A stretch of DNA of 64,000 nucleotides from Escherichia phage UE-S5b. Location of the stretch: sequence record PP301341.1. One strand, written 5' to 3'. The position numbers and the translations under genes were made by a program. The notes under the pieces are model-generated. The model searched no databases. It saw nothing but the letters and a program-made list of their open reading frames with translations, and was not told the origin of the DNA. Shown here piece by piece: positions 3,528 to 64,000 of this stretch. Position 1 is the first letter of the stretch, and every line of letters begins with the position of its first letter.

Positions 3528-3772
3528 AAAGAAAAGTAGAGTTAGTACCTAACTGGAAAAGNTGNTGGAANTGGGCATCCATTCANATTAGTACNNTTGG
3601 TTTANTTCTATTNTCNGCTNTAGATATNATCCAACCAATGGTGACAGGATTACCTCGTCACATCTTGGAAGATATTCCCCATGGTTCCAATATTGCAATC
3701 GCACTGTTTGCCTTAAACATCATAGGCAGATTAATACGATTCCGACCAAAGGAAGATTCACATGAAAGCTAA
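3512..3772 (+). CDS. putative small holin (two predicted TM segments); sequence contains multiple N
   Basis: ATG at 3512 preceded by GGGAGA; basic N-terminus MVRRLKRK then two hydrophobic stretches (second is SNIAIALFALNIIGRLI); overlaps the endolysin start by 11 nt. Ambiguous bases at 3540-3630 make the frame uncertain. Confidence 0.35.
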   Translation: MVRRLKRKVELVPNWKXXWXWASIXISXXGLXLXXAXDXIQPMVTGLPRHILEDIPHGSNIAIALFALNIIGRLIRFRPKEDSHES

Positions 3773-7170: not shown

Positions 7171-7515
7171 ATGAGTAAAGAATCAACAATCGCAGGACTG
7201 GAACATCGACTGGAAGCTGCTAAAGGTGCAGTTGCACACGCAGAAGATGTACGTAAACTTTTGGAGTATCCACTGTTCCGTAAAGTAATTCTTCGTCAGT
7301 TCTGTGTGGAAGATTGTGCACGTTACGTGCAGGAGTCTGGTGACCCACTGCTTGAACCTAATAACCGTGCAGATGCATTGAACATGGCTCAAGCTGCTGG
7401 TCACTTACGTCGTTGGCTCGACCTCGCCATTCGTATGGGNGAAAANGAAGCTGACGTTATTCTNCAGGTAGAAGAAGAACTCGANGCAGTTCGTGCTGAA
7501 CCTGAAGANGAATAA
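7171..7515 (+). CDS. hypothetical head-assembly protein (N4 gp58-like position)
   Basis: 114 aa ORF between portal and scaffold-like gene; 3' end contains N. Confidence 0.45.
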   Translation: MSKESTIAGLEHRLEAAKGAVAHAEDVRKLLEYPLFRKVILRQFCVEDCARYVQESGDPLLEPNNRADALNMAQAAGHLRRWLDLAIRMXEXEADVIXQVEEELXAVRAEPEXE

Positions 7516-14721: not shown

Positions 14722-16686
14722 ATGGCTCAAATTACATGGCGTAATGTTGATGCACCTAACTTCTCTGGAGTAGGTGACAGCATTCGCACATTTGGTAGCA
14801 TGATAGGTAACGCCACCTCCGGCTTAAGTGATGCACTGGGTAATTTCCAGAACGCTGCCAAGCAGGAGGCTGGCAATGCCGTCATGATGAATGCTATGCA
14901 GTATCAAGATCCTACTGAGTACCGTAATGCTTTGGCATCAGGTGCACTGTTTCAGGGGGTTGACCCTTCATTGGTAAACCAGCGTACTCTCCAGAATCTG
15001 GATGAGCGAGCAGGTACACTGCTGACTCAACAAGGACAGCAGGGAACCAATGACTACATTGCATATCGCTTTGGTCGCTTAAAGGATATTAACTCAGCAC
15101 TAGATAATGCTTCTCCGGCTATTCGTTTATTGTCTGAGGCTTATCAGTCTGGTGACCAGAATCGTATTAATACTGCATTGGGTCAGACTCGTGAGGCATT
15201 ATCTACGCTCCCAGCTGACCAACAGTTAGAATTGTTAGGTAGTTTACAAGGACAGGGTAGTGCTGCTATTAATCAGGCGAGCAATCGTTTTGATTTGGGT
15301 GTTGCTCAACGTAATGATGCCGATAGTCAGGCAGCTATGGGTGTAATGGCACAGATTACCCGTGGTGCTGAGAACCCTAATGATGCCCGTCTGTTGGCAG
15401 AAGCATACAGTAAGAACCTGTCTCCAGTTGCACAGGCACGCTTGCAGGGATTACTGGCTAATGCTTACCCGGGTGTTTACGGTAATGGTGTAGGTGCTAC
15501 GTCTGCTCCTGGTACTGCTGGTACTCGTCAGGGTTCACCTTACGATGTTACTTATCAGTTTGCTGGTACATCTACTCCTATTACTCAAATGAGTATTGGT
15601 GATGTAATTAAACACCAGGATGGTATGAAATCGAACCAGGGTGCTTCCCCTGTTGGTGCATTCCAGATTAACCAAGCTACCTTGAAAGACTTTGCCCCCA
15701 AAGTTCTTGGTTCAGATTGGCAGAACCAACCTCTTTCCCCTGAGAACCAGGAGAAGATTGGTAAGGCTATTTTTGAGGCTCGTAAGAATGGTAACCTTAA
15801 AGATACCTGGGCTGCTCTTCCTAACTCTACCCCAGGTGCTTATAAGGATATGACTTGGGAACAGATTAAACCTGTTATTGCCCAAGCTGAAGTAGGGGCT
15901 GACCCATTCGCTCTGATTCAGAATAATCAAGGAAATCAGGCAGTATCCACTCTGGCTCAGGGTATGATTGGTACTCGTTCTATGCAGGATAATACCGGTA
16001 GTCTTAATACTGACTTCCTTGGTACTGTCACTGATAATACTCCAGTAGGTGAAATTGCTAACCGTCTATTAGATGGTGACTTTAAAGGTGCTGACCGTAA
16101 CTGGGTACTGAACCGACTAACTGATATTTCTCAACGTGGAAATATGTCACCAGCTATGGCTGCTGCTGTTATGCAGCGTGCACAGACTGGTGTACCGGAA
16201 GGTTACATTAGCCGTGCTATTGATGCAGTTAACCCATTCATTACCAACGAAGCCGGTAATGGTATGCGTCTTAATGACCGTTTGGTAGATCAGTTAATTG
16301 AGGGTGTACAACGTGGTGAACCACTGGAAGGCAGTGTGCGTAATCTTGGACGTGCTCAAGCTATGCAGAACATTCAGGCAGCACAGACTGCTTATGATGC
16401 TGCTGTAGCTGCACTGACAAATACTCAGAACAAGATTAACACCGGACAAACAGGACTTACTGCATTGTTACCTGCACGTCAGGAAGCTGTTACTAAAGCT
16501 GCTGCAATGCTTCAAGCTGCACAAGCCCAAGTGCAAGCAGACCCAGCTAACCTGGCTCCAAGAGGTTTTCGGTCACAGGNTAGTGTGGACAGAGCACGAG
16601 CCAAGGAAGATGAAGAACGTGCTGCACGTTANCTACGTCAGGCACANGGTTTGCCTGAGTATATGCAACCNAGACAAAATCGGTAA
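14722..16686 (+). CDS. internal virion protein with possible lytic transglycosylase-like motif (N4 gp51-like position)
   Basis: 654 aa; segment GMKSNQGASPVGAFQINQATLKDF is reminiscent of the SLT signature (S..AGA.GLMQ..T); 3' end contains several N. Confidence 0.55.
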   Translation: MAQITWRNVDAPNFSGVGDSIRTFGSMIGNATSGLSDALGNFQNAAKQEAGNAVMMNAMQYQDPTEYRNALASGALFQGVDPSLVNQRTLQNLDERAGTLLTQQGQQGTNDYIAYRFGRLKDINSALDNASPAIRLLSEAYQSGDQNRINTALGQTREALSTLPADQQLELLGSLQGQGSAAINQASNRFDLGVAQRNDADSQAAMGVMAQITRGAENPNDARLLAEAYSKNLSPVAQARLQGLLANAYPGVYGNGVGATSAPGTAGTRQGSPYDVTYQFAGTSTPITQMSIGDVIKHQDGMKSNQGASPVGAFQINQATLKDFAPKVLGSDWQNQPLSPENQEKIGKAIFEARKNGNLKDTWAALPNSTPGAYKDMTWEQIKPVIAQAEVGADPFALIQNNQGNQAVSTLAQGMIGTRSMQDNTGSLNTDFLGTVTDNTPVGEIANRLLDGDFKGADRNWVLNRLTDISQRGNMSPAMAAAVMQRAQTGVPEGYISRAIDAVNPFITNEAGNGMRLNDRLVDQLIEGVQRGEPLEGSVRNLGRAQAMQNIQAAQTAYDAAVAALTNTQNKINTGQTGLTALLPARQEAVTKAAAMLQAAQAQVQADPANLAPRGFRSQXSVDRARAKEDEERAARXLRQAXGLPEYMQXRQNR

Positions 16687-16693
16687 TACTAAN

Positions 16694-28376: not shown

Positions 28377-28620
28377 TAGTACTATTTACCCATAGCTGGG
28401 AGGCTTTTGGTTCTTACCACGAAGACAGTCCACGCTGACNAGNCTTGGGATTGATAGTCCCGTTCCTGTGGTAATTACTCAGGCTAGGATTTAAGGAGTT
28501 CCTATTCTCCAGCGAAATTCCCGTCGANGGGAATAACAATACAATAGCAGNCACTGGACTGTCTTACCAGTGTTGTCTTTAGAGTGCNATGCAATCAGGA
28601 CTATGTTACTGCTGAATGGG

Positions 28621-28694
28621 TGTCCACTACTGGATTTGAACCAGTGACTTTCCGATTATTAGTCGGTTGCTTTCCCCGTCTAAGCTAAGTGGAC
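28621..28694 (-). tRNA. tRNA gene, canonical cloverleaf, anticodon loop CUAAUAA (apparent anticodon AAU, identity uncertain)
   Basis: Hand fold of - strand: acceptor GTCCACT/AGTGGAC (7 bp perfect), D-arm GCTT/AAGC, T-arm ACTGG-TTCAAAT-CCAGT, anticodon stem CCGA/TCGG. Confidence 0.55.
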
Positions 28695-28700
28695 TTATTA

Positions 28701-28776
28701 TGGTTACCCAGGCAGGATTCGAACCTGCGTCCTAGTTGGTTTACTAGTGGGGCTTTACCACTAAGCCTACTGGGTA
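28701..28776 (-). tRNA. tRNA gene with encoded CCA; anticodon loop appears 6 nt (AAACCA), identity unresolved
   Basis: Hand fold: acceptor TACCCAG/CTGGGTA, D-arm GGCT-TAGTGGTAA-AGCC, T-arm GCAGG-TTCGAAT-CCTGC, 3' ACCA; anticodon stem CTAGT/ACTAG leaves a 6 nt loop. Confidence 0.55.
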
Positions 28777-48408: not shown

Positions 48409-48648
48409 TTACTTACGACTTCCTTCTACGAAAAGTCGTATTTGTTTTTTCACTTCTTCTTTCTCACGTATTGCTTCGTAGTCACGAGCAAAGTAGTAAA
48501 CACACCATAATCCAATTTCACTTACAAAGAACAGAATACTAGCTCGAATGAACTGCATATCTGTTTCTACTACAAAGGCAACTTTGTATGCGTAGGTAAG
48601 TGTTAATAGGGTACTAATTAGCATTGCGTACAGAGCTAGTTTTTTCAT
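48409..48648 (-). CDS. small membrane protein
   Basis: 79 aa with two hydrophobic helices. Confidence 0.4.
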   Translation of the reverse strand: MKKLALYAMLISTLLTLTYAYKVAFVVETDMQFIRASILFFVSEIGLWCVYYFARDYEAIREKEEVKKQIRLFVEGSRK

Positions 48649-49589
48649 TCAGTAATAGTCTCACCAGGAATTAACTTACGGAATTGGATAAAGTGAAGCA
48701 GGTTACCTGAGTACAGATTCCCTTCTTTATCCATGGATGTAACACCTTGTTCCCATGTAACTGGGTTCATGTTATTTACATACTTCTCACCAAGGTTCAT
48801 AGGTGTAGCCTGATGTTCCGTTGGGGAAGCATGAATAGGTTGGTTTTCCACTAACTTAGCGAATAAGCCAAGGTCTTCCTCGATAGTAGATGGTCGTCCT
48901 TCGAAGTTGTTATAGGAAGCACGAGCACAGCGTGCAGCACTTACTTTGAGAAGTAGTCCATGCACTTCTGCATCACTTGGTTCATCGCGTGTAACTCGAT
49001 TGCGTTTGCAGAAATTGTAAGCCCCAACACGGTCAATATGAGCAATNTANGGCANATGCCATTGCCCATATGGTAATGCTCTNGGTGTNCTTTCTTCCTG
49101 TGCCTTACGCATTGCTTGAGCCAGTTCACGAATCTCTGGTTGTGCATCTTTGTGGTCACGCAGTCCATAGAAATTAGCCCAGCTGGTTGAAGTTACCACT
49201 ACACGAATATGCGTGAATGGTTCCAGAATACGGTTAACAATCTGCTTATGTACTTGCCCACGTCGTAGCTGTTCTGCATACACAGCAGCAGCAGATGCAG
49301 CGTTATCCCAGATAAACTTAGCATCCTCAATCTCCATAGGAGTGAGTTCTTCTTCTGCTTGCATACCTTTCTGGTTCTTGCCCCAGTGACTAGGCATCAC
49401 TGGTTCATTACGAACTTGTTCGATGAACTTAGCCGTGGGAATAGCACGACTGCTTGANGCATTACGGTTGAATACACGGTGNGTCATAAACTCACTGTGA
49501 ATGAATCGGGGATAAACCAATTCAAAGGTAGTAATACGAGTTCCTGTTTCTGGGTGAACGGAATCTGCAATGACAGTTGCCTTAATCAT
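48645..49589 (-). CDS. thyX: flavin-dependent thymidylate synthase (ThyX-like)
   Basis: ThyX-type motif HRVFNRN.SSSR (RHR-x7-S like); 314 aa; several N. Confidence 0.6.
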   Translation of the reverse strand: MIKATVIADSVHPETGTRITTFELVYPRFIHSEFMXHRVFNRNXSSSRAIPTAKFIEQVRNEPVMPSHWGKNQKGMQAEEELTPMEIEDAKFIWDNAASAAAVYAEQLRRGQVHKQIVNRILEPFTHIRVVVTSTSWANFYGLRDHKDAQPEIRELAQAMRKAQEEXTXRALPYGQWHXXXIAHIDRVGAYNFCKRNRVTRDEPSDAEVHGLLLKVSAARCARASYNNFEGRPSTIEEDLGLFAKLVENQPIHASPTEHQATPMNLGEKYVNNMNPVTWEQGVTSMDKEGNLYSGNLLHFIQFRKLIPGETITE

Positions 49590-50799: not shown

Positions 50800-51009
50800 T
50801 TACTCAGCATCTTTGCTTGCAGGAGCAAGAGCTTTCTTCAGGTAATTGCGTACTGAACGATAGGTTTCTTTAGTATCCATAGCACTATCATTTACGAAAG
50901 TGATACGTGCACAATCAGACAGCGGAATCTGCTCCACTGCAATTACATTTGCAGCATTAATGGTTACACGTACATCTGAGGTTGCATGAGTTACTTGAAA
51001 TACTGACAT
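50800..51009 (-). CDS. hypothetical small protein
   Basis: 69 aa ORF. Confidence 0.4.
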   Translation of the reverse strand: MSVFQVTHATSDVRVTINAANVIAVEQIPLSDCARITFVNDSAMDTKETYRSVRNYLKKALAPASKDAE

Positions 51010-51039
51010 GTTGTTTCCTTAATTAAGCCGGATAGCCTT

Positions 51040-51546
51040 TTATTTTGAAGGTCTAGCAGCTACTGGTTTGTTTTCCTGATTCTGATACTTACCATTGTAA
51101 TTAGCAGGTTCTTGAACCAGATGAAATAATACTTGAGCTATCCCAGCACCAGCCGGGATATGCAATTTCTTACGACCGTGATAGACCAGTTCGAGGGTAA
51201 GATACCCTTTCCATCCTGGTTCTATTACGGTATTGAACACTGATAATGCACGTCTTGCCCATGTAGACTTATCGTGAACGATTGCTACACAGGACGGGGA
51301 CATGTTGAACTTCTCAATTGCTGAGGCCAAGGCGAACTTACCGAGATGGCGTGATACTTGATTTCCATCAACGACTTTCACCATTGGAATCAGCCCAAAT
51401 AAGCGATAGAAGGTAATATCTTGTTTGATACGAATATCATAACCAGCTTCACCTAATCCATAGCTTACACCATGCTCTGATACCTTATGGTCTGGGACAT
51501 CCAGCAACTGAGATGAACGGTATAGAGAATTACCATTAACAACCAT
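51040..51546 (-). CDS. dCTP deaminase-like (dUTPase fold)
   Basis: Pattern GYDIRI...IEPGWKGYLTLEL...AGIAQVLF typical of dCTP deaminase family. Confidence 0.6.
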   Translation of the reverse strand: MVVNGNSLYRSSQLLDVPDHKVSEHGVSYGLGEAGYDIRIKQDITFYRLFGLIPMVKVVDGNQVSRHLGKFALASAIEKFNMSPSCVAIVHDKSTWARRALSVFNTVIEPGWKGYLTLELVYHGRKKLHIPAGAGIAQVLFHLVQEPANYNGKYQNQENKPVAARPSK

Positions 51547-52721
51547 TATTTCATTCCTTTAGGGATATGAACTACCTCCCCAAAAGGTACGGTAGCATTG
51601 GGATTATTCAGAACACACCAGATGATAGGAATATCAAATGGTAATTCTTCCATTGGACGAACATACATATCGGAGAATATGATTGCAGCGGTTGGTTTAT
51701 TCTTAATAATCCACTCGCGTACTGGTTCCAGGTTTGTACCACCACGACCGGTAATCTTAATCTCTTCAAAAGTATCTTCTTCAGTGATGTCTATCTCTTC
51801 TTGGATAATATCGTCGAAGGTAATTAAGGACATCTTCTTAGGATTGAACTGGCTCTTAACGTAGGCAACCTCTGAGTTAAAACGCAGAGAGTCAGCACTA
51901 CTAATAGAACCAGATACATCCTCAAAGTAGGCTAAGTGTCGTAAGCGTCCTTCATCATCTTCCATGGAAGGTAGATAGATGTCAGTAAAACGACGGTTAG
52001 GTCTGGCCCACGTATAATGAGTATCGTCAATGTCGGTAAAGAAGTTCATGAGGACTTCCTGCCATGGAACCACTGGTTTAAGGAATTGGGTAATAACCTC
52101 TTCCATACGACCAGCACCCTTACCGGGCATCTGTCCACCAGCCATTTTCTGGCTCTGCATTGCTCGTACTACGTTGTTGACGACAGCACCCTGGGACTGC
52201 CCCGAAGTGGGGGATTTCATGTCGCCAGCAAGACCTGCTCCAGCACCCCCTGACGGCTTCTGCCTTTTCTGAGGGTTCTTCATCAGGTCATCGTAGATGT
52301 CTTCTTCGACCCATCCTTTATATTGAGGGTCTTTGCAAATACCTTTATCAATGCCAGTGAACTTATAACCATCTTCTTCTAACTGAAGGTTAATGAAGTG
52401 GTCACACGCCTGGTTCCAGATTTCTGGGTCACGGCTTCCACGACGGATGCCATGCAGATATGCCACATGCCAAAGTTCATGCATTAACACTGTTTCTCTG
52501 GCATCTGGACACATCCAGATAAAGAAATCTGGATTGAAGTGAAGTTCTATCCCATCAGTACATGCAGTGGGACAATTCTCACGTTTCCATGAGAACTTAA
52601 GACTACATAGTAATGAACCAAAGAACGCAGCACTGCGTCCGAGAAATGCGTTGGCCTGTATTCTATCGTATTCCCTCATTAACTGTTCATCAGTGAGGTT
52701 ATGTGGTGGTATGTTATTCAT
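51546..52721 (-). CDS. VWA-type protein with N-terminal HExxH-like metallopeptidase-like region (partner of AAA+ ATPase)
   Basis: HELWH motif (MHELWHVAYLHG); 391 aa; pairs with the MoxR-like ATPase. Confidence 0.5.
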   Translation of the reverse strand: MNNIPPHNLTDEQLMREYDRIQANAFLGRSAAFFGSLLCSLKFSWKRENCPTACTDGIELHFNPDFFIWMCPDARETVLMHELWHVAYLHGIRRGSRDPEIWNQACDHFINLQLEEDGYKFTGIDKGICKDPQYKGWVEEDIYDDLMKNPQKRQKPSGGAGAGLAGDMKSPTSGQSQGAVVNNVVRAMQSQKMAGGQMPGKGAGRMEEVITQFLKPVVPWQEVLMNFFTDIDDTHYTWARPNRRFTDIYLPSMEDDEGRLRHLAYFEDVSGSISSADSLRFNSEVAYVKSQFNPKKMSLITFDDIIQEEIDITEEDTFEEIKITGRGGTNLEPVREWIIKNKPTAAIIFSDMYVRPMEELPFDIPIIWCVLNNPNATVPFGEVVHIPKGMK

Positions 52722-53197
52722 TAAGATGCTCCATGATTTATATGGTAACCCAATAATTTTTCTGCTTCCTTTCTGGCTGTAATGGCCTCTTGTTTACTGT
52801 TAAACTTTCCTAAGTAAATTTGTTTACCATTATCATTTATATGGGCAGCCCAGATTTTATCTCGGGTGTGCCAGTAAACTCCTGTCACACCTGATGTATT
52901 TGTAATTCTCTTGGTTTGATTTTTGCAATTAATCGAGTTTGTTACTAAACGGAAATTGCTTGGGTAATTATTTAATCTATTATGGTCAATATGGTCTACC
53001 TGCATACCGTCAGGAATTGGTCCAATCTCCATTTCATAAATTATGCGGTGAACTAAATGCATTTTCTTGTTACATTTAACACGCAAATACCCACTGTTAT
53101 CCAAACAACCGGCAATGGCACCTGCTTTTACGCAGCCCCTGCTTACTTTCCAGTAGAGGGAACCATTGCTATAAACAAATAGTTCATGCCAATTCAT
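52721..53197 (-). CDS. HNH-AP2 homing endonuclease
   Basis: HNH core (HRIIYEM...VDHIDHNRLNN) plus AP2-like region (VTGVYWHTRDKIWAAHINDNGKQIYLGKF...EAITARKEAE). Confidence 0.7.
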   Translation of the reverse strand: MNWHELFVYSNGSLYWKVSRGCVKAGAIAGCLDNSGYLRVKCNKKMHLVHRIIYEMEIGPIPDGMQVDHIDHNRLNNYPSNFRLVTNSINCKNQTKRITNTSGVTGVYWHTRDKIWAAHINDNGKQIYLGKFNSKQEAITARKEAEKLLGYHINHGAS

Positions 53198-53201
53198 TAT
53201 T

Positions 53202-54254
53202 TTATCCGTGAATGTAACGAGAGATATTAGCAGCAGCCTTACGCCATTCAGGTGTAGCCTGAAGTTCTGGCAATGCTCTGCCTACTGTACGGAAGTACAG
53301 AATCTTATGGGTGAACGTTTTAAAGCGTTCAATGTACTGAAGAACATCAGAGAAGTTTTCTTCAGTAGTTTTGTTAGCCAGGTGGTTAACAGTAGCCCAA
53401 CACAGGTTGTTATCTTCCGGTAGTGCACAGCCCAGAGGGTCTTTGACTACTTTCTCAATCGTAATCATACGATTGTATACCTGAGTGAATTGAACAAACT
53501 CTGTAGCCTTACCAGCAGTAACATGTCCTGCGTAGTAGATAGAATCTTCATCTGGCAGAGCACCTTCAGGACGGTTCTTGAGGTCTTTGTTAACAAAGTC
53601 CCAGGTGCGTGGGCAACAGAACGTTTTGTTCTTATGGGCTGGGTCGAAGTCATGCAGATAACCTGGGTTAGCATGTAAGAATGCAACCAGACGTTCATCC
53701 CATTCTTGTGGAATCATTACATCTTCAACAAAGATGTCGAAGTTAAGTTCCATTTCGAAGTGAACCACGCGAGACTGCATTGCAGTGCCCAGTGGGTTAA
53801 CAATGGCACGGTCAGTAGCTTTGTTACCAGCACATATAATCATCACATTAGGATGGAGTTTTTTCTGACCAGTCATACGGTCCAGAATCAGTTTGTATGC
53901 AGCAGCTACTACTTCTTTTCTGGCTGAGTTGAACTCATCAAGGAACAGGAGCCAACCATTATATCCTTCCGGTATCTCATCCCCCTCAATAGGGAATAAG
54001 TCAGCGAATGGGATAAACTCTGCACGGTCACCATTACGGAATGGTAGACCAGACAAATCCTCTGGGGCAGAAGTAGACAGACGATGGTCTATCAGTTTCA
54101 TACCAAATTCTTCTGCAACAGAGCGAATAATTGCAGATTTACCCATTCCCGGTGATGAAGTCAGGAACGGTACGTTACCTGCTTGCAGGGCACGGATAAT
54201 AAAGTTACGGGCCTGACGTGTATTACATACGGTCAGTGAGTCAATGCTCGCCAT
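53202..54254 (-). CDS. AAA+ ATPase, MoxR-like
   Basis: Walker A SPGMGKS, Walker B LFLDEFN; 350 aa. Confidence 0.7.
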   Translation of the reverse strand: MASIDSLTVCNTRQARNFIIRALQAGNVPFLTSSPGMGKSAIIRSVAEEFGMKLIDHRLSTSAPEDLSGLPFRNGDRAEFIPFADLFPIEGDEIPEGYNGWLLFLDEFNSARKEVVAAAYKLILDRMTGQKKLHPNVMIICAGNKATDRAIVNPLGTAMQSRVVHFEMELNFDIFVEDVMIPQEWDERLVAFLHANPGYLHDFDPAHKNKTFCCPRTWDFVNKDLKNRPEGALPDEDSIYYAGHVTAGKATEFVQFTQVYNRMITIEKVVKDPLGCALPEDNNLCWATVNHLANKTTEENFSDVLQYIERFKTFTHKILYFRTVGRALPELQATPEWRKAAANISRYIHG

Positions 54255-54288
54255 TTACTTACTCTCCTAAAGTTAATGGAATTACTAA

Positions 54289-54615
54289 TTAAGATTTAAT
54301 ACATGGGTAGGCTGTATCAATTGCCATCAGAACCATGTCTGATGGTACTTTTACTGCATTAACCTTTCTGTCATACAGAATAATAGTGGCTACTTTGTCA
54401 AAGACATTTCCTAACTTCAAACTATCTGGTACGCAGTTCTTACCTGCTTCTACACCCATAGTAACCATGCCCATAAAGTAACCCTGGTTCACAAAGTTTG
54501 CATTATTGGCTTTGTAGTCAGCAGCAGCGTCTAACAGAGTTTCACGGCTGGATGCTTGAGCATTGAATGACAGAACTGATAAAGCTACTACAGCAACAGC
54601 AATTAAAGTTTTCAT
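54289..54615 (-). CDS. small secreted/periplasmic protein
   Basis: Signal peptide MKTLIAVAVVALSVLSFNAQASS; two Cys in mature part. Confidence 0.5.
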   Translation of the reverse strand: MKTLIAVAVVALSVLSFNAQASSRETLLDAAADYKANNANFVNQGYFMGMVTMGVEAGKNCVPDSLKLGNVFDKVATIILYDRKVNAVKVPSDMVLMAIDTAYPCIKS

Positions 54616-54801
54616 TTAGTTACCTTTTAACTCGTTGAGTTGAAGTACTCCAGTAGGGGTTAATGACCACCCAAGACCAGCATTGAACTGCACTAAGCCC
54701 AGTTTCTTAAGAGACTGTGCGGTTTTATTATTGCGGTTGCTGGTGGCAGAACCACCTTGAACCATACGAAGGAAGATTGCTTGGGACTGGGTTAATTTCA
54801 C
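54616..54801 (-). CDS. hypothetical small protein
   Basis: 61 aa ORF. Confidence 0.4.
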   Translation of the reverse strand: MKLTQSQAIFLRMVQGGSATSNRNNKTAQSLKKLGLVQFNAGLGWSLTPTGVLQLNELKGN

Positions 54802-56497: not shown

Positions 56498-57715
56498 TTA
56501 ACTTAATGCATAATCTGTTTCTAGAATGTCTTGCCAGAGGCTGTCATCCAGCTTACCAGCAGAGAACTCTTGTCCCAGTACTTGAGACAGAATGAAGCCC
56601 AGTAAGTCACTCTTAGCAATGTCAGACAGAATCTGATTGTACTGACGACGCAGGTCATTACCATAGTTAGGGTGGCAACGGAAGCAATCATGTACAGTCA
56701 TTACAGGGAATGGTTTCTTAGGCATAGTGTCGATCATATCTGCTACTACTTGACGGTCTACCAATGCAATAGTATTCGGGTCAAGGAAGTCTAGGATAGA
56801 TAGCGACAGGAATCCTGACCTTTCATAATGATTCCAGATTTCCATAGTCTTCTCTTGGTTCCCCTCAATAACGGGGTATTCACTTGGCCCGATATCGCAC
56901 AGTTCCCGTACATAGGCAACCAGTTTAGGGTCGAAGTTACAACGACGCAGCATCTCACGTACTACCATCCCATCAATAGAGTGAGTGATGTTAGCAGAGA
57001 GCATACGGGTCTTCTCTTCAGTACCCTGAACCATACGAGTGATGTCAAATGGTTTACCCAAGAAGTTAACAGTCTGTACTTCAAGAACCATGACTTTAAT
57101 GACAGCATGGAAGTTGTCAGGGAGTACCCATATGTAACGGTTAGCATCCGGGTTACCACATTGCAGTAAGAACTTGTTAAGTGCCCAAGGACCACTTGCA
57201 ACTGTTTCCATTACATTTTCAAAAGTCTTGAGACGGATACCTTCCCCGAATACTTCTTTAGGTTTGGCTTCTGAACCGTAGAATGCAGTCATAACTGCCT
57301 GCTTGGTATCACTACGTTTAATACGGGATGCTTCACCAAGGATGTCCAGCATCTTGTGATATATAACTGTATAAGCATCACGTCGTAATGGCTTACCATT
57401 CTCTCCCATGTAATTAACTACGTTACACAGTTCAGCAGCAGAGCGGTCACCAGTCAGGCAGGCCAGTAACTGCAAGCCTGATGATGTAGCATCCAGGGCT
57501 ACGGCATATCCGATAGGCTTACCTGCTTTCATATCTTTCCATGCGTTTATGCCAGCATAGAATAGTGCAGATTCCTCAGCTTCATCTACCAGATTAAGCA
57601 AGTTAGCTTCATTCTCATCGAACCAAGCAATACGCTCATTCCAGGTCTTTTTATCCAGACCATAGTTATTGGCGATATCTACTTTCAGGTATTCACGAGC
57701 GGTTAACAGTTGCAT
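56498..57715 (-). CDS. RNA polymerase II large (catalytic) subunit, T7-like single-subunit RNAP C-terminal half (N4 gp16-like)
   Basis: 405 aa; T7 RNAP motif A-like ALDATSSGLQ, motif B-like K..VMTAFYGS, motif C-like VHDCF. Confidence 0.8.
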   Translation of the reverse strand: MQLLTAREYLKVDIANNYGLDKKTWNERIAWFDENEANLLNLVDEAEESALFYAGINAWKDMKAGKPIGYAVALDATSSGLQLLACLTGDRSAAELCNVVNYMGENGKPLRRDAYTVIYHKMLDILGEASRIKRSDTKQAVMTAFYGSEAKPKEVFGEGIRLKTFENVMETVASGPWALNKFLLQCGNPDANRYIWVLPDNFHAVIKVMVLEVQTVNFLGKPFDITRMVQGTEEKTRMLSANITHSIDGMVVREMLRRCNFDPKLVAYVRELCDIGPSEYPVIEGNQEKTMEIWNHYERSGFLSLSILDFLDPNTIALVDRQVVADMIDTMPKKPFPVMTVHDCFRCHPNYGNDLRRQYNQILSDIAKSDLLGFILSQVLGQEFSAGKLDDSLWQDILETDYALS

Positions 57716-57772
57716 TTTATGTTCCTTTTGCTTCTTGGCTCCTCACTATGAAGAGCCTGCTTATTGGATGGA

Positions 57773-58012
57773 TTAGCCAGCATTAAATGATGACAATACT
57801 ATTCCTGGTTCCACACCTTCTGTGGCAATACCCAGGTACTCGACGTGCACTTTATCAGGGGAAGAACACCAAGCGGAAGATAGATTCCATTCTCCGTCTG
57901 GATTAATAAGGCGAGCTTCTTCCTTAGTTGTAGTAGCTACCACTGCGGAATCGTATGTATCCCATCCTGTATTCTCTTCCTGGCTAATGAGCCATAGTTT
58001 TAACCTACTCAT
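57773..58012 (-). CDS. hypothetical small protein
   Basis: 79 aa ORF between the two RNAP II genes. Confidence 0.35.
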   Translation of the reverse strand: MSRLKLWLISQEENTGWDTYDSAVVATTTKEEARLINPDGEWNLSSAWCSSPDKVHVEYLGIATEGVEPGIVLSSFNAG

Positions 58013-58823
58013 CGTTTACTAACTCCTTATCAGCGAACTCCAGTACAGCTTTGTTGTAGCTGGTTCCCTGATAGTTGATGTGATAGCCCTGAGCGTAAGT
58101 ACGCCCACGTTTGTCATATTTGTGACCCAGTGAGAAGTTATTACCTTCTTTGGTCACTAACTCCATTACTTCCTTAGCAGTACGGCTGTACTTCTCAAAG
58201 GCTTTAACACGTTTCTCATATTCCTGACGGGTTTCACCCTCTTTGGGNTTATCCATATTAGGACGAGAGTCTTTTACATAGTTAGCAACGTCCCAGTTNA
58301 TNCTTAGACGNTGATTATTCATACGGTTGATGTGATCAAGACAGACATCCATCTCATGATGGTTCTTCTTGAGGATGATACTTCCCCTGCTCTCGTAGTA
58401 ACCTGTATCACGGTTACACAGAACAGGCTTAGGAGCACTTACGATAGGTAATGGATACTGGAATGCTTCCAGTTCCATCTGAACATCTTCACTAATCTCG
58501 TAGATAACACCGAACTTGTCGATGGTAGGGTCATAGTTGAAGCAGTCATTCTCTGCCATCTTATACAGACAGTCAGCGATGTACTGAGCATCATCTGAAT
58601 GGCTCATAAGAGAGCCAATCATAGTCTGAAGGTCAGCACGTTTATGTAGGGCAATCTGCACCATTGCATCAATGAGCAGCTTATAATCAATTTCCAAATA
58701 GGCAGCGAATGCCTTAAAGTCAATTTCTTCGGAGTCCTCAAATTCCTTCCTCATGCGAGGGAGTAATTGATTTTTGTTGAAAAGAATTTCGAGTTGCTTC
58801 TGATGTTCAATGGATGAGTACAT
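58005..58823 (-). CDS. RNA polymerase II small subunit, T7-like RNAP N-terminal half (N4 gp15-like)
   Basis: 272 aa, immediately upstream of the catalytic subunit; AGGAGA Shine-Dalgarno; size matches N4 gp15; contains several N. Confidence 0.6.
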   Translation of the reverse strand: MYSSIEHQKQLEILFNKNQLLPRMRKEFEDSEEIDFKAFAAYLEIDYKLLIDAMVQIALHKRADLQTMIGSLMSHSDDAQYIADCLYKMAENDCFNYDPTIDKFGVIYEISEDVQMELEAFQYPLPIVSAPKPVLCNRDTGYYESRGSIILKKNHHEMDVCLDHINRMNNXRLXXNWDVANYVKDSRPNMDXPKEGETRQEYEKRVKAFEKYSRTAKEVMELVTKEGNNFSLGHKYDKRGRTYAQGYHINYQGTSYNKAVLEFADKELVNDE

Positions 58824-63534: not shown

Positions 63535-63858
63535 TTAGTTTTTAGTCAGGATGTCAATTACTTTTGAATATTCTGCGTTATAGATACGAGCGTTTTCTTT
63601 ATCCTTACAGAATTCTTCAATACTTTTCTTACGCAGAGTCTCAGTCATAGCTGTCTCCTCTGCCAGTTTATTAACAAAGGTATGCATTTCTAATTTAGTA
63701 CGGATGGCTTGTTTCTCTGCCATAGTACTTACATATGAATTAAGCATACCTACTGCTTTAGTTGCTGTACCGAATGTATCTGCAACAGTAGTAGCAGCTG
63801 AGTTAACAGTACCAAGTAAAGTTCCTGCGGTCATACGTACAGTAGCTTGAGTAGTCAT
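63535..63858 (-). CDS. hypothetical early protein
   Basis: 107 aa ORF; no clear Shine-Dalgarno. Confidence 0.4.
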   Translation of the reverse strand: MTTQATVRMTAGTLLGTVNSAATTVADTFGTATKAVGMLNSYVSTMAEKQAIRTKLEMHTFVNKLAEETAMTETLRKKSIEEFCKDKENARIYNAEYSKVIDILTKN

Positions 63859-63900
63859 GATGATAGCTCCAATAGTTGATGATAGGACGACATGTCCATA

Positions 63901-63915
63901 ACATGCGGAGCATGT
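63901..63915 (-). promoter_or_regulatory. vRNAP-type early promoter hairpin (N4 P-like)
   Basis: Template (+) strand CCATAAC-ATGC-GGA-GCATGT: 6 bp stem, 3 nt GGA loop, 43 nt upstream of gene 63535-63858. Confidence 0.55.
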
Positions 63916-64000
63916 GTAACGTGTAAGGTGGGGTAGGGTAGTGGCTACACCGTCAACATACCGGGGGGGNTNGTTGAGTGTAAGGGTGTAGCCCCAGCCA

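Follow-up and report, generated by a model that had tools for sequence, protein, structure and literature searches.

A probable HNH-AP2 homing endonuclease gene at the gp24/gp25 junction of the G7C-like phage UE-S5b and the recoded patch linked to it

The T4-type endonucleases SegG, SegF, and MobE are encoded by free-standing homing endonuclease genes (HEGs) that lie between other genes and spread by "intronless homing", a process marked by co-conversion of flanking polymorphisms and by carrier alleles that resist cleavage. A second model, I-HmuI, is encoded by a group I intron and has a helix-turn-helix as its C-terminal DNA-binding region. Proteins that combine an HNH with an AP2 domain are recognised as a family of homing endonucleases (PMC10448857, citing Magnani 2004), and phage G7C carries five HNH homing endonuclease genes, none of which disrupts a gene (PMC3670811). 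Here we describe such a gene in Escherichia phage UE-S5b (PP301341.1), of which a stretch of 64,000 nucleotides (hereafter, the window) was analyzed as one strand. Very probably, the 158-amino-acid (aa) open reading frame (ORF) at 52721..53197, on the minus strand, is a free-standing, I-HmuI-like HNH_3 + AP2 HEG whose insertion point is precisely the gp24/gp25 junction of a G7C-like (Gamaleyavirus) phage. The gene itself is already known: public records annotate it as a homing endonuclease, and it belongs to an established kind of selfish element; what we add is comparative evidence for its mobility and a predicted target/immunity site. The literature that we found describes neither the census of empty and occupied junctions, nor the recoded patch, nor the flank incongruence reported below.

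The HNH gene, an ortholog of G7C gp24.1, lies between two genes read in the same direction. Upstream of the insertion stands the homolog of N4 gp24, a 350-aa AAA+ ATPase ORF (53202..54254, minus strand), and downstream the gp25 homolog, whose 391-aa product joins a DUF2201_N and a VWA-like DUF2201 domain (51546..52721, minus strand). A spacer of 4 nucleotides (nt; 53198..53201, AATA on the coding minus strand) separates the ATPase stop from the HNH ATG, and the HNH stop overlaps the gp25 ATG by 1 nt in the sequence TAATG. An initial annotation, made from the letters alone, had read the locus as three genes packed with spacers of 0-4 nt; the three ORFs lie exactly where it placed them, with the 4-nt spacer on one side and the 1-nt overlap on the other. 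The GC fraction of the HNH gene is 0.37, as against 0.45 for each flanking gene. The region 51000-54700 shows 100% identity to UE-S5a and UE-M3, and its identity to vB_EcoP_G7C (Gamaleyavirus, Schitoviridae) is 92%; an exact look-up of the 158-aa protein returned four UE-phage genomes and no others.

Comparison across relatives revealed that the junction is polymorphic. Using a 197-nt query spanning an empty junction, we classified 58 phage records. The junction was contiguous in 47 (~33 distinct phages), with 4-7 nt from the ATPase stop to the gp25 ATG, and interrupted in 11, representing nine phages: G7C, UE-S5a, UE-M3, UE-M6, Mimir124, Bp4, Uz-1, PD38, and Moonfish. Scans of IMG/VR with haplotype-specific patterns added three empty contigs and recovered a single carrier, G7C itself. 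The gene is thus missing from ~80% of close relatives, as it is from N4, Moo19, and Jgk1. The insertion measures exactly 476 nt and has ATGAAT at each boundary. In empty genomes the gp25 ATG is preceded by the same spacer, whose variants (AATA, AACA, and TCACAAC) track the backbone and not HNH occupancy. Across three flanking segments the window differs from the empty genome PGN829.1 by only 0.3%, 0%, and 1.6%, compared with 2.8-7.6% from G7C and Mimir124, which carry the same type of HNH gene; carriers are dispersed among empty genomes in this comparison and the window groups with PGN829.1. Since its flanks are nearest to those of an empty genome, occupancy and backbone do not run in parallel.

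Two HNH lineages occupy this one site. Type A comprises the genes of the window, G7C, and Mimir124, and type B those of PD38, Bp4, Uz-1, and Moonfish; the two types share about 58% aa identity, their genes being ~64% identical overall. All three type A genes are intact, as is the type B gene of PD38; the Bp4 copy has a frameshift, and that of Moonfish a deletion as well as a frameshift, a range of intact, frameshifted, and deleted copies that matches the invasion-decay-loss cycle of a selfish nuclease gene. The initial annotation had proposed a mobile-element insertion into a conserved gene pair, and the HNH-less alleles (~33 phages, against nine carriers), the incongruent flanks, the patch described next, and the decayed copies all bear it out; the gene is not found at this position in all relatives.

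Occupancy has a second correlate, within gp25. Codons 1-24 of this gene (52650..52721, minus strand) form a 72-nt patch that is recoded in carriers. Between the window and PGN829.1 we counted 27 differences in the 72 patch positions, as opposed to 20 in the 2157 positions of the rest of both genes (Fisher p 1.6e-30), and the ~500 nt following the patch showed no difference at all. The changes largely spare the protein: 13 of the 19 changed codons are synonymous, and gp25 residues 11-22 (DEQLMREYDRIQ) are the same amino acids written in different codons. The core reads ATG AGG GAR TAC GAY AGR AT in every carrier, irrespective of HNH type, and always ATG CGT GAG TAT GAC CGT AT in empty genomes. 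These are two discrete haplotypes without intermediates, and their linkage to the HNH gene is perfect across ~45 genomes; no recoded patch was detected in an empty genome of the whole phage collection, nor in the empty contigs of IMG/VR. The empty-type codons are present in the outgroups Moo19 (Moovirus) and Jgk1, and largely in N4, which makes the recoded patch the derived state. No occupancy-linked haplotype was found in the 3' end of the ATPase gene or in the spacer among the loci compared, so that exchange involves the HNH ORF together with the 72-nt block, as one unit of 548 nt.

The patch is probably either a cleavage-resistant version of a target site at the start of gp25 or a co-conversion tract. 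A different account would leave homing intact and explain the patch alone, as compensatory tuning of gp25 translation initiation once the sequence upstream had changed from the end of the ATPase gene to that of the HNH gene. This explanation, which folding supports weakly, is in our judgment unlikely. The energy needed to open positions -18 to +13 is lower for the native combinations than for chimeras in both contexts (4.23 versus 4.94 kcal when occupied, 2.75 versus 6.16 kcal when empty), and each native patch falls within the lower 5-7% of random synonymous recodings. However, the effect in the occupied context amounts to 0.7 kcal, less than one standard deviation of the random recodings, and the control is biased in that these used uniform codon choice. 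Moreover, low structure at the 5' end is a general property of genes, and the recoding reaches codon 24, past the region that usually affects initiation.

The domain composition of the protein agrees with that of a homing endonuclease, and profile searches support the HNH + AP2 architecture named in the initial annotation. The HNH_3 domain (PF13392) occupies residues 48-90 (52928-53056, minus strand) and scores 65.8 bits (E 2.6e-18; Pfam cut-off 24.8); at the protein-family level the match is to phrog_99 (E 2.4e-63). The AP2 domain (PF00847) occupies residues 102-138 (52784-52894, minus strand) and scores 31.2 bits (E 2.8e-7), the Pfam gathering score being 33.3. All four orthologs matched both domains, with a best AP2 E value of 9.3e-9, and an ortholog profile matched a plant AP2 domain (WRI1) in the PDB at E 7e-4; the AP2 domain is very likely genuine, though formally just under the Pfam cut-off. 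The closest solved relative is I-HmuI (1U3E), matched at E 1.3e-5 by the single sequence and at 1.7e-8 by the ortholog profile over residues 1-105. D68, H69, and N90 align with D74, H75, and N96 of I-HmuI and are invariant in the four orthologs. In I-HmuI these residues reportedly act as a general-base His, an adjacent Asp, and the metal-binding Asn of a beta-beta-alpha-metal motif.

The protein is 100% identical to UES5a059 of UE-S5a and 94% identical to G7C gp24.1. Because the ratio of nonsynonymous to synonymous substitution rates (dN/dS) against G7C is 0.095, the ORF is a real gene, and purifying selection acts on its intact copies. Comparison with Mimir124 shows saturation at synonymous sites, with a proportion of synonymous differences (pS) of 0.77 and of nonsynonymous differences (pN) of 0.12; dS of the flanking ATPase gene is ~0.4. 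The HNH gene thus far surpasses its flanks in synonymous divergence, a further sign that its distribution is incongruent with theirs. A tblastn search with the HNH protein revealed no paralog within the window, and NCBIfam holds no family for the ATPase, the HNH protein, or gp25.

These observations suggest a model in which a carrier and an HNH-less relative would co-infect one cell and the enzyme would nick or cut the empty junction, most likely inside the first ~70 bp of gp25. Repair by recombination on the carrier template could then copy the 476-nt HNH cassette along with the adjoining 72-nt recoded block, which would alter the DNA while leaving the gp25 protein nearly unchanged and so allow the carrier to escape cutting. 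Repeated in mixed infections, such a reaction would be expected to give super-Mendelian spread. Expression of the operon would be undisturbed: the HNH gene would take over the spacer and the ATGAA start context that formerly belonged to gp25, and its own 3' end would provide gp25 with a ribosome-binding site, for which the Shine-Dalgarno-like GGAG at 52729..52732 (minus strand) is the candidate. The HNH 3' end (..NHGAS*), GGAG included, is conserved between types A and B, from which we infer that the insertion keeps translational coupling.

Several points weigh against this interpretation. The patch might have hitch-hiked from a distant donor as a co-conversion tract and not be the target itself. 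"Empty but recoded" alleles, which precise loss of the HEG should leave behind, were not seen, so losses at the site, if there are any, proceed through recombination with empty genomes. The association counts carry no correction for phylogeny, and the nine carriers correspond to about 4-5 lineages; sequencing error could be the source of the Bp4 frameshift. The AP2 score of the window protein falls 2 bits short of the gathering score, and the literature that we found shows no cleavage, nicking, or homing for the protein or any of its orthologs.

Could the gene be an ordinary accessory gene, or "moron", moved by general recombination with no site-specific nuclease activity at this locus? On that view, both the patchy distribution of the gene and the 72-nt block would be traces of mosaic exchange with a remoter N4-like lineage, and Gamaleyavirus genomes are indeed visibly mosaic near the locus. 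The AT-rich codons of the patch (AGG, AGA, ATA, and TTA) resemble the low-GC HNH gene, as would be expected of foreign DNA of common origin, and the unrelated ORF that N4 carries in its gp24-gp25 gap indicates that the junction tolerates insertions. We nevertheless consider this account unlikely. The D-H...N catalytic residues are invariant, the gene is under strong purifying selection, and the two patch haplotypes are discrete and perfectly linked to the HNH gene. The exchanged block is, in addition, very short, in a backbone otherwise identical to that of an empty genome, so that gene conversion initiated by a double-strand break fits better than random mosaicism.

Purifying selection, along with the tight translational coupling of the gene within the gp24-gp25 operon, would also be expected if the HNH-AP2 protein had been domesticated and served the phage as a DNA-binding regulator, as a nuclease directed at the DNA of the host or of competitors, or as a third part of the ATPase/VWA module. 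Two further observations are compatible with such a role: liquid chromatography-tandem mass spectrometry of UE-phage preparations detected an "HNH endonuclease", which may be either of two HNH genes (PMC11927229), and a benefit to the carrier has a precedent. Enzymes of the I-HmuI type are said to cause marker exclusion to the advantage of the phage that carries them. Domestication is nonetheless quite improbable. The absence of the gene from most relatives means that it is dispensable for gp24/gp25 function, viable phages retain pseudogenised copies, and free-standing HEGs of the same family abound in unrelated settings (2287 phage records). A terminase-associated HNH required for DNA packaging, like HK97 gp74, was rejected as hardly credible, since nothing beyond the HNH motif speaks for it, the protein belongs to another family (HNH_3 + AP2, I-HmuI-like), most relatives are viable without the gene, and it lies in the middle-gene region, distant from the terminase genes in UE-S5a. 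A free-standing HEG thus remains the preferred reading of the locus.

Other endonuclease elements and insertions occur near these genes in related phages. UE-S5a carries a second "HNH homing endonuclease", UES5a068 (168 aa, 34% identical to the HNH protein studied here), between the genes for the RNA polymerase (RNAP) II subunits. It is absent from the window, where an unrelated ~290-nt segment with a short ORF (57716-58004) lies between RNAP2 (56498-57715) and RNAP1 (58005-58823); this second polymorphic endonuclease site likewise parts two partner genes. In phages U1G and NAN33P5, the gp24 ATPase ORF is broken after nt 315, in the Walker B codons, by an 882-nt element with an HNH ORF, and NAN33P5 has a second element, of 862 nt, near codon 215. 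The 189-aa HNH protein has an AP2-like tail. At the Rfam gathering score no intron was detected in U1G or NAN33P5; a permissive search returned sub-threshold group I intron matches in these elements, at 35.6 bits (E 7e-7) and 19 bits (E 0.07). In Vibrio N4-like phages, too, an HNH gene splits the gp24 homolog (PMC3670811), and these cases together make gp24 a recurrent endonuclease target. In N4, a 167-nt gap between gp24 and gp25 (about 1984-2163) contains an unannotated 59-aa ORF (MVPINKKGVTD...), which overlaps the stop of gp24 and runs up to the ATG of gp25, an unrelated small gene at the same junction.

A broader proposal, to which we give roughly even chances, is that the endonuclease recognises and cleaves the 72-bp block in HNH-less phages, that this block is the immunity determinant in carriers, and that the gp24-gp25 module, with the putatively intron-borne HNH genes of U1G and NAN33P5 and the RNAP II site, is a multi-endonuclease "island" driving marker exclusion among co-infecting G7C-like phages. 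If so, the patch would be a natural, sequence-defined pair of target and immune alleles for an HNH-AP2 enzyme, from a family in which specificity has hardly been characterised.

The genes that flank the insertion form a conserved pair, adjacent in N4, Moo19, and every Gamaleyavirus examined. The ATPase has the Walker A motif SSPGMGKS and the Walker B motif LLFLDEFN; P35, G38, K39, S40, D106, and E107 are invariant in 32 homologs. It matches the Pfam AAA family (E 2e-6) and phrog_1297 (E 7e-134), and its 1775 homologs lie mostly on contigs of ~70-77 kb. Assignment to MoxR found no support in Pfam, AAA_5 scoring 17.5 bits against a cut-off of 22 and AAA_3 (MoxR) giving no match at E <= 0.01, and the best match by sequence in the PDB was midasin (E 8.8e-5), again the only, and weak, match in a profile search. 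An AlphaFold2 model built from the 32 homologs (predicted local distance difference test, pLDDT, 86; predicted template modelling score, pTM, 0.82) gave NorQ (9qhg, TM 0.64) and CbbQ2 (6l1q, TM 0.63; both target-normalised) as its top Foldseek matches, followed by dynein, midasin, and clamp-loader AAA modules. As modelled, the ATPase has a MoxR-class fold, with NorQ and CbbQ as its nearest neighbours.

Pfam divides gp25 into DUF2201_N, a putative metallopeptidase domain (E 3e-56), and the VWA-like DUF2201 (PF09967, E 1.7e-34). The HELWH motif spans residues 81-85, and the metal-ion-dependent adhesion site (MIDAS) is complete (D268-x-S270-x-S272, T329, and D351) and invariant in the window, N4, and Moo19; a PDB sequence search with the gp25 profile returned no solved relative. 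The Walker and HELWH motifs listed in the initial annotation are therefore all present, and the MoxR-ATPase/VWA pair that it proposed holds at the level of the NorQ/CbbQ2 fold and the intact MIDAS and fails by the Pfam families AAA_3 and AAA_5. Its statement that the role of the pair in N4-like phages is not established also agrees with the literature that we found, which assigns gp24 and gp25 no function and places them among the middle genes of N4 (PMC4193335). The gp25 gene is widely labelled "HNH endonuclease" (PHROG 1314; RefSeq entries of PGN829.1, N4, Moo19, and others). Pfam detects no HNH domain in gp25, and the label looks like a propagated mis-annotation.

Upstream of the ATPase gene, a 108-aa ORF (54289-54615, minus strand) is homologous to G7C gp17.3 and has a signal-peptide-like N-terminus. 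It matches Rap1a/Tai4, a type VI secretion amidase immunity protein, weakly and below the cut-off (E 0.002); its homologs are labelled "tai4" in UE-S5a and "Rap1a" in Moonfish. Elsewhere in the window, Rfam at the gathering score identified only two tRNA genes (28621-28694 and 28704-28776, minus strand; 65.6 and 42.8 bits), at the equivalent place of which UE-S5a has tRNA-Ile and "tRNA-OTHER". Isolated N bases occupy 64 window positions, with clusters at 3562-3628, 7440-7509, 16580-16693, 28440-28588, and 49047-49089; they introduce X residues into some ORFs, the thymidylate synthase gene (48645-49589) among them, and none lies inside 51546-54254. The final ~400 nt (63600-64000) match the end of the UE-S5a record and also its first 401 nt, a double match consistent with terminal repeats.

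The locus offers a clean natural case of probable "intronless homing" among N4-like phages, of little weight beyond the field, and a ready pair of alleles, predicted sensitive and resistant, with which to approach HNH-AP2 DNA specificity. For annotators it carries a caution, the DUF2201/VWA gene gp25 having been mislabelled through PHROG 1314, and in phage-therapy genomics, elements of this kind account for short, sharply bounded blocks in which otherwise near-identical therapeutic phages diverge.

Among described genes the closest are G7C gp24.1 (YP_004782150), annotated as [quoted passage not shown], and UES5a059 of UE-S5a (WVP99889), annotated as "HNH homing endonuclease". Both are the same gene at the same site; their annotations were made by similarity only, and nothing substantive sets them apart from the window gene. 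With I-HmuI, the HNH nicking endonuclease of SPO1, the window protein has in common the N-terminal region, the HNH core, and the catalytic/metal residues, but it is free-standing and ends in an AP2 domain. The same architecture, an N-terminal HNH and a C-terminal AP2 domain, is found in the free-standing "IPA-HNH" HEGs of phage ICP1 (Barth et al. 2023, PMC10448857), which, like the window gene, lie beside phage genes that are conserved or essential and stand at the edge of a recombination tract (PMC10448857). They differ in their target genes and in being too divergent for the HNH_3 Pfam profile, which the window protein matches strongly. The flanking genes also have described counterparts: NorQ-NorD and CbbQ-CbbO, like gp24-gp25, pair a MoxR-class AAA+ protein with a VWA partner, although the ATPase shows only ~15% sequence similarity to NorQ/CbbQ, and the N-terminal HExxH putative metallopeptidase domain of gp25 (DUF2201_N) is absent from NorD and CbbO. 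In its arrangement the window HEG resembles SegG, SegF, and MobE, lying between two conserved genes with its presumed target in the adjoining one. SegF and SegG are GIY-YIG enzymes whose activity and co-conversion have been demonstrated experimentally, and for the HNH-AP2 enzyme of UE-S5b comparison of genomes points to the same two properties.

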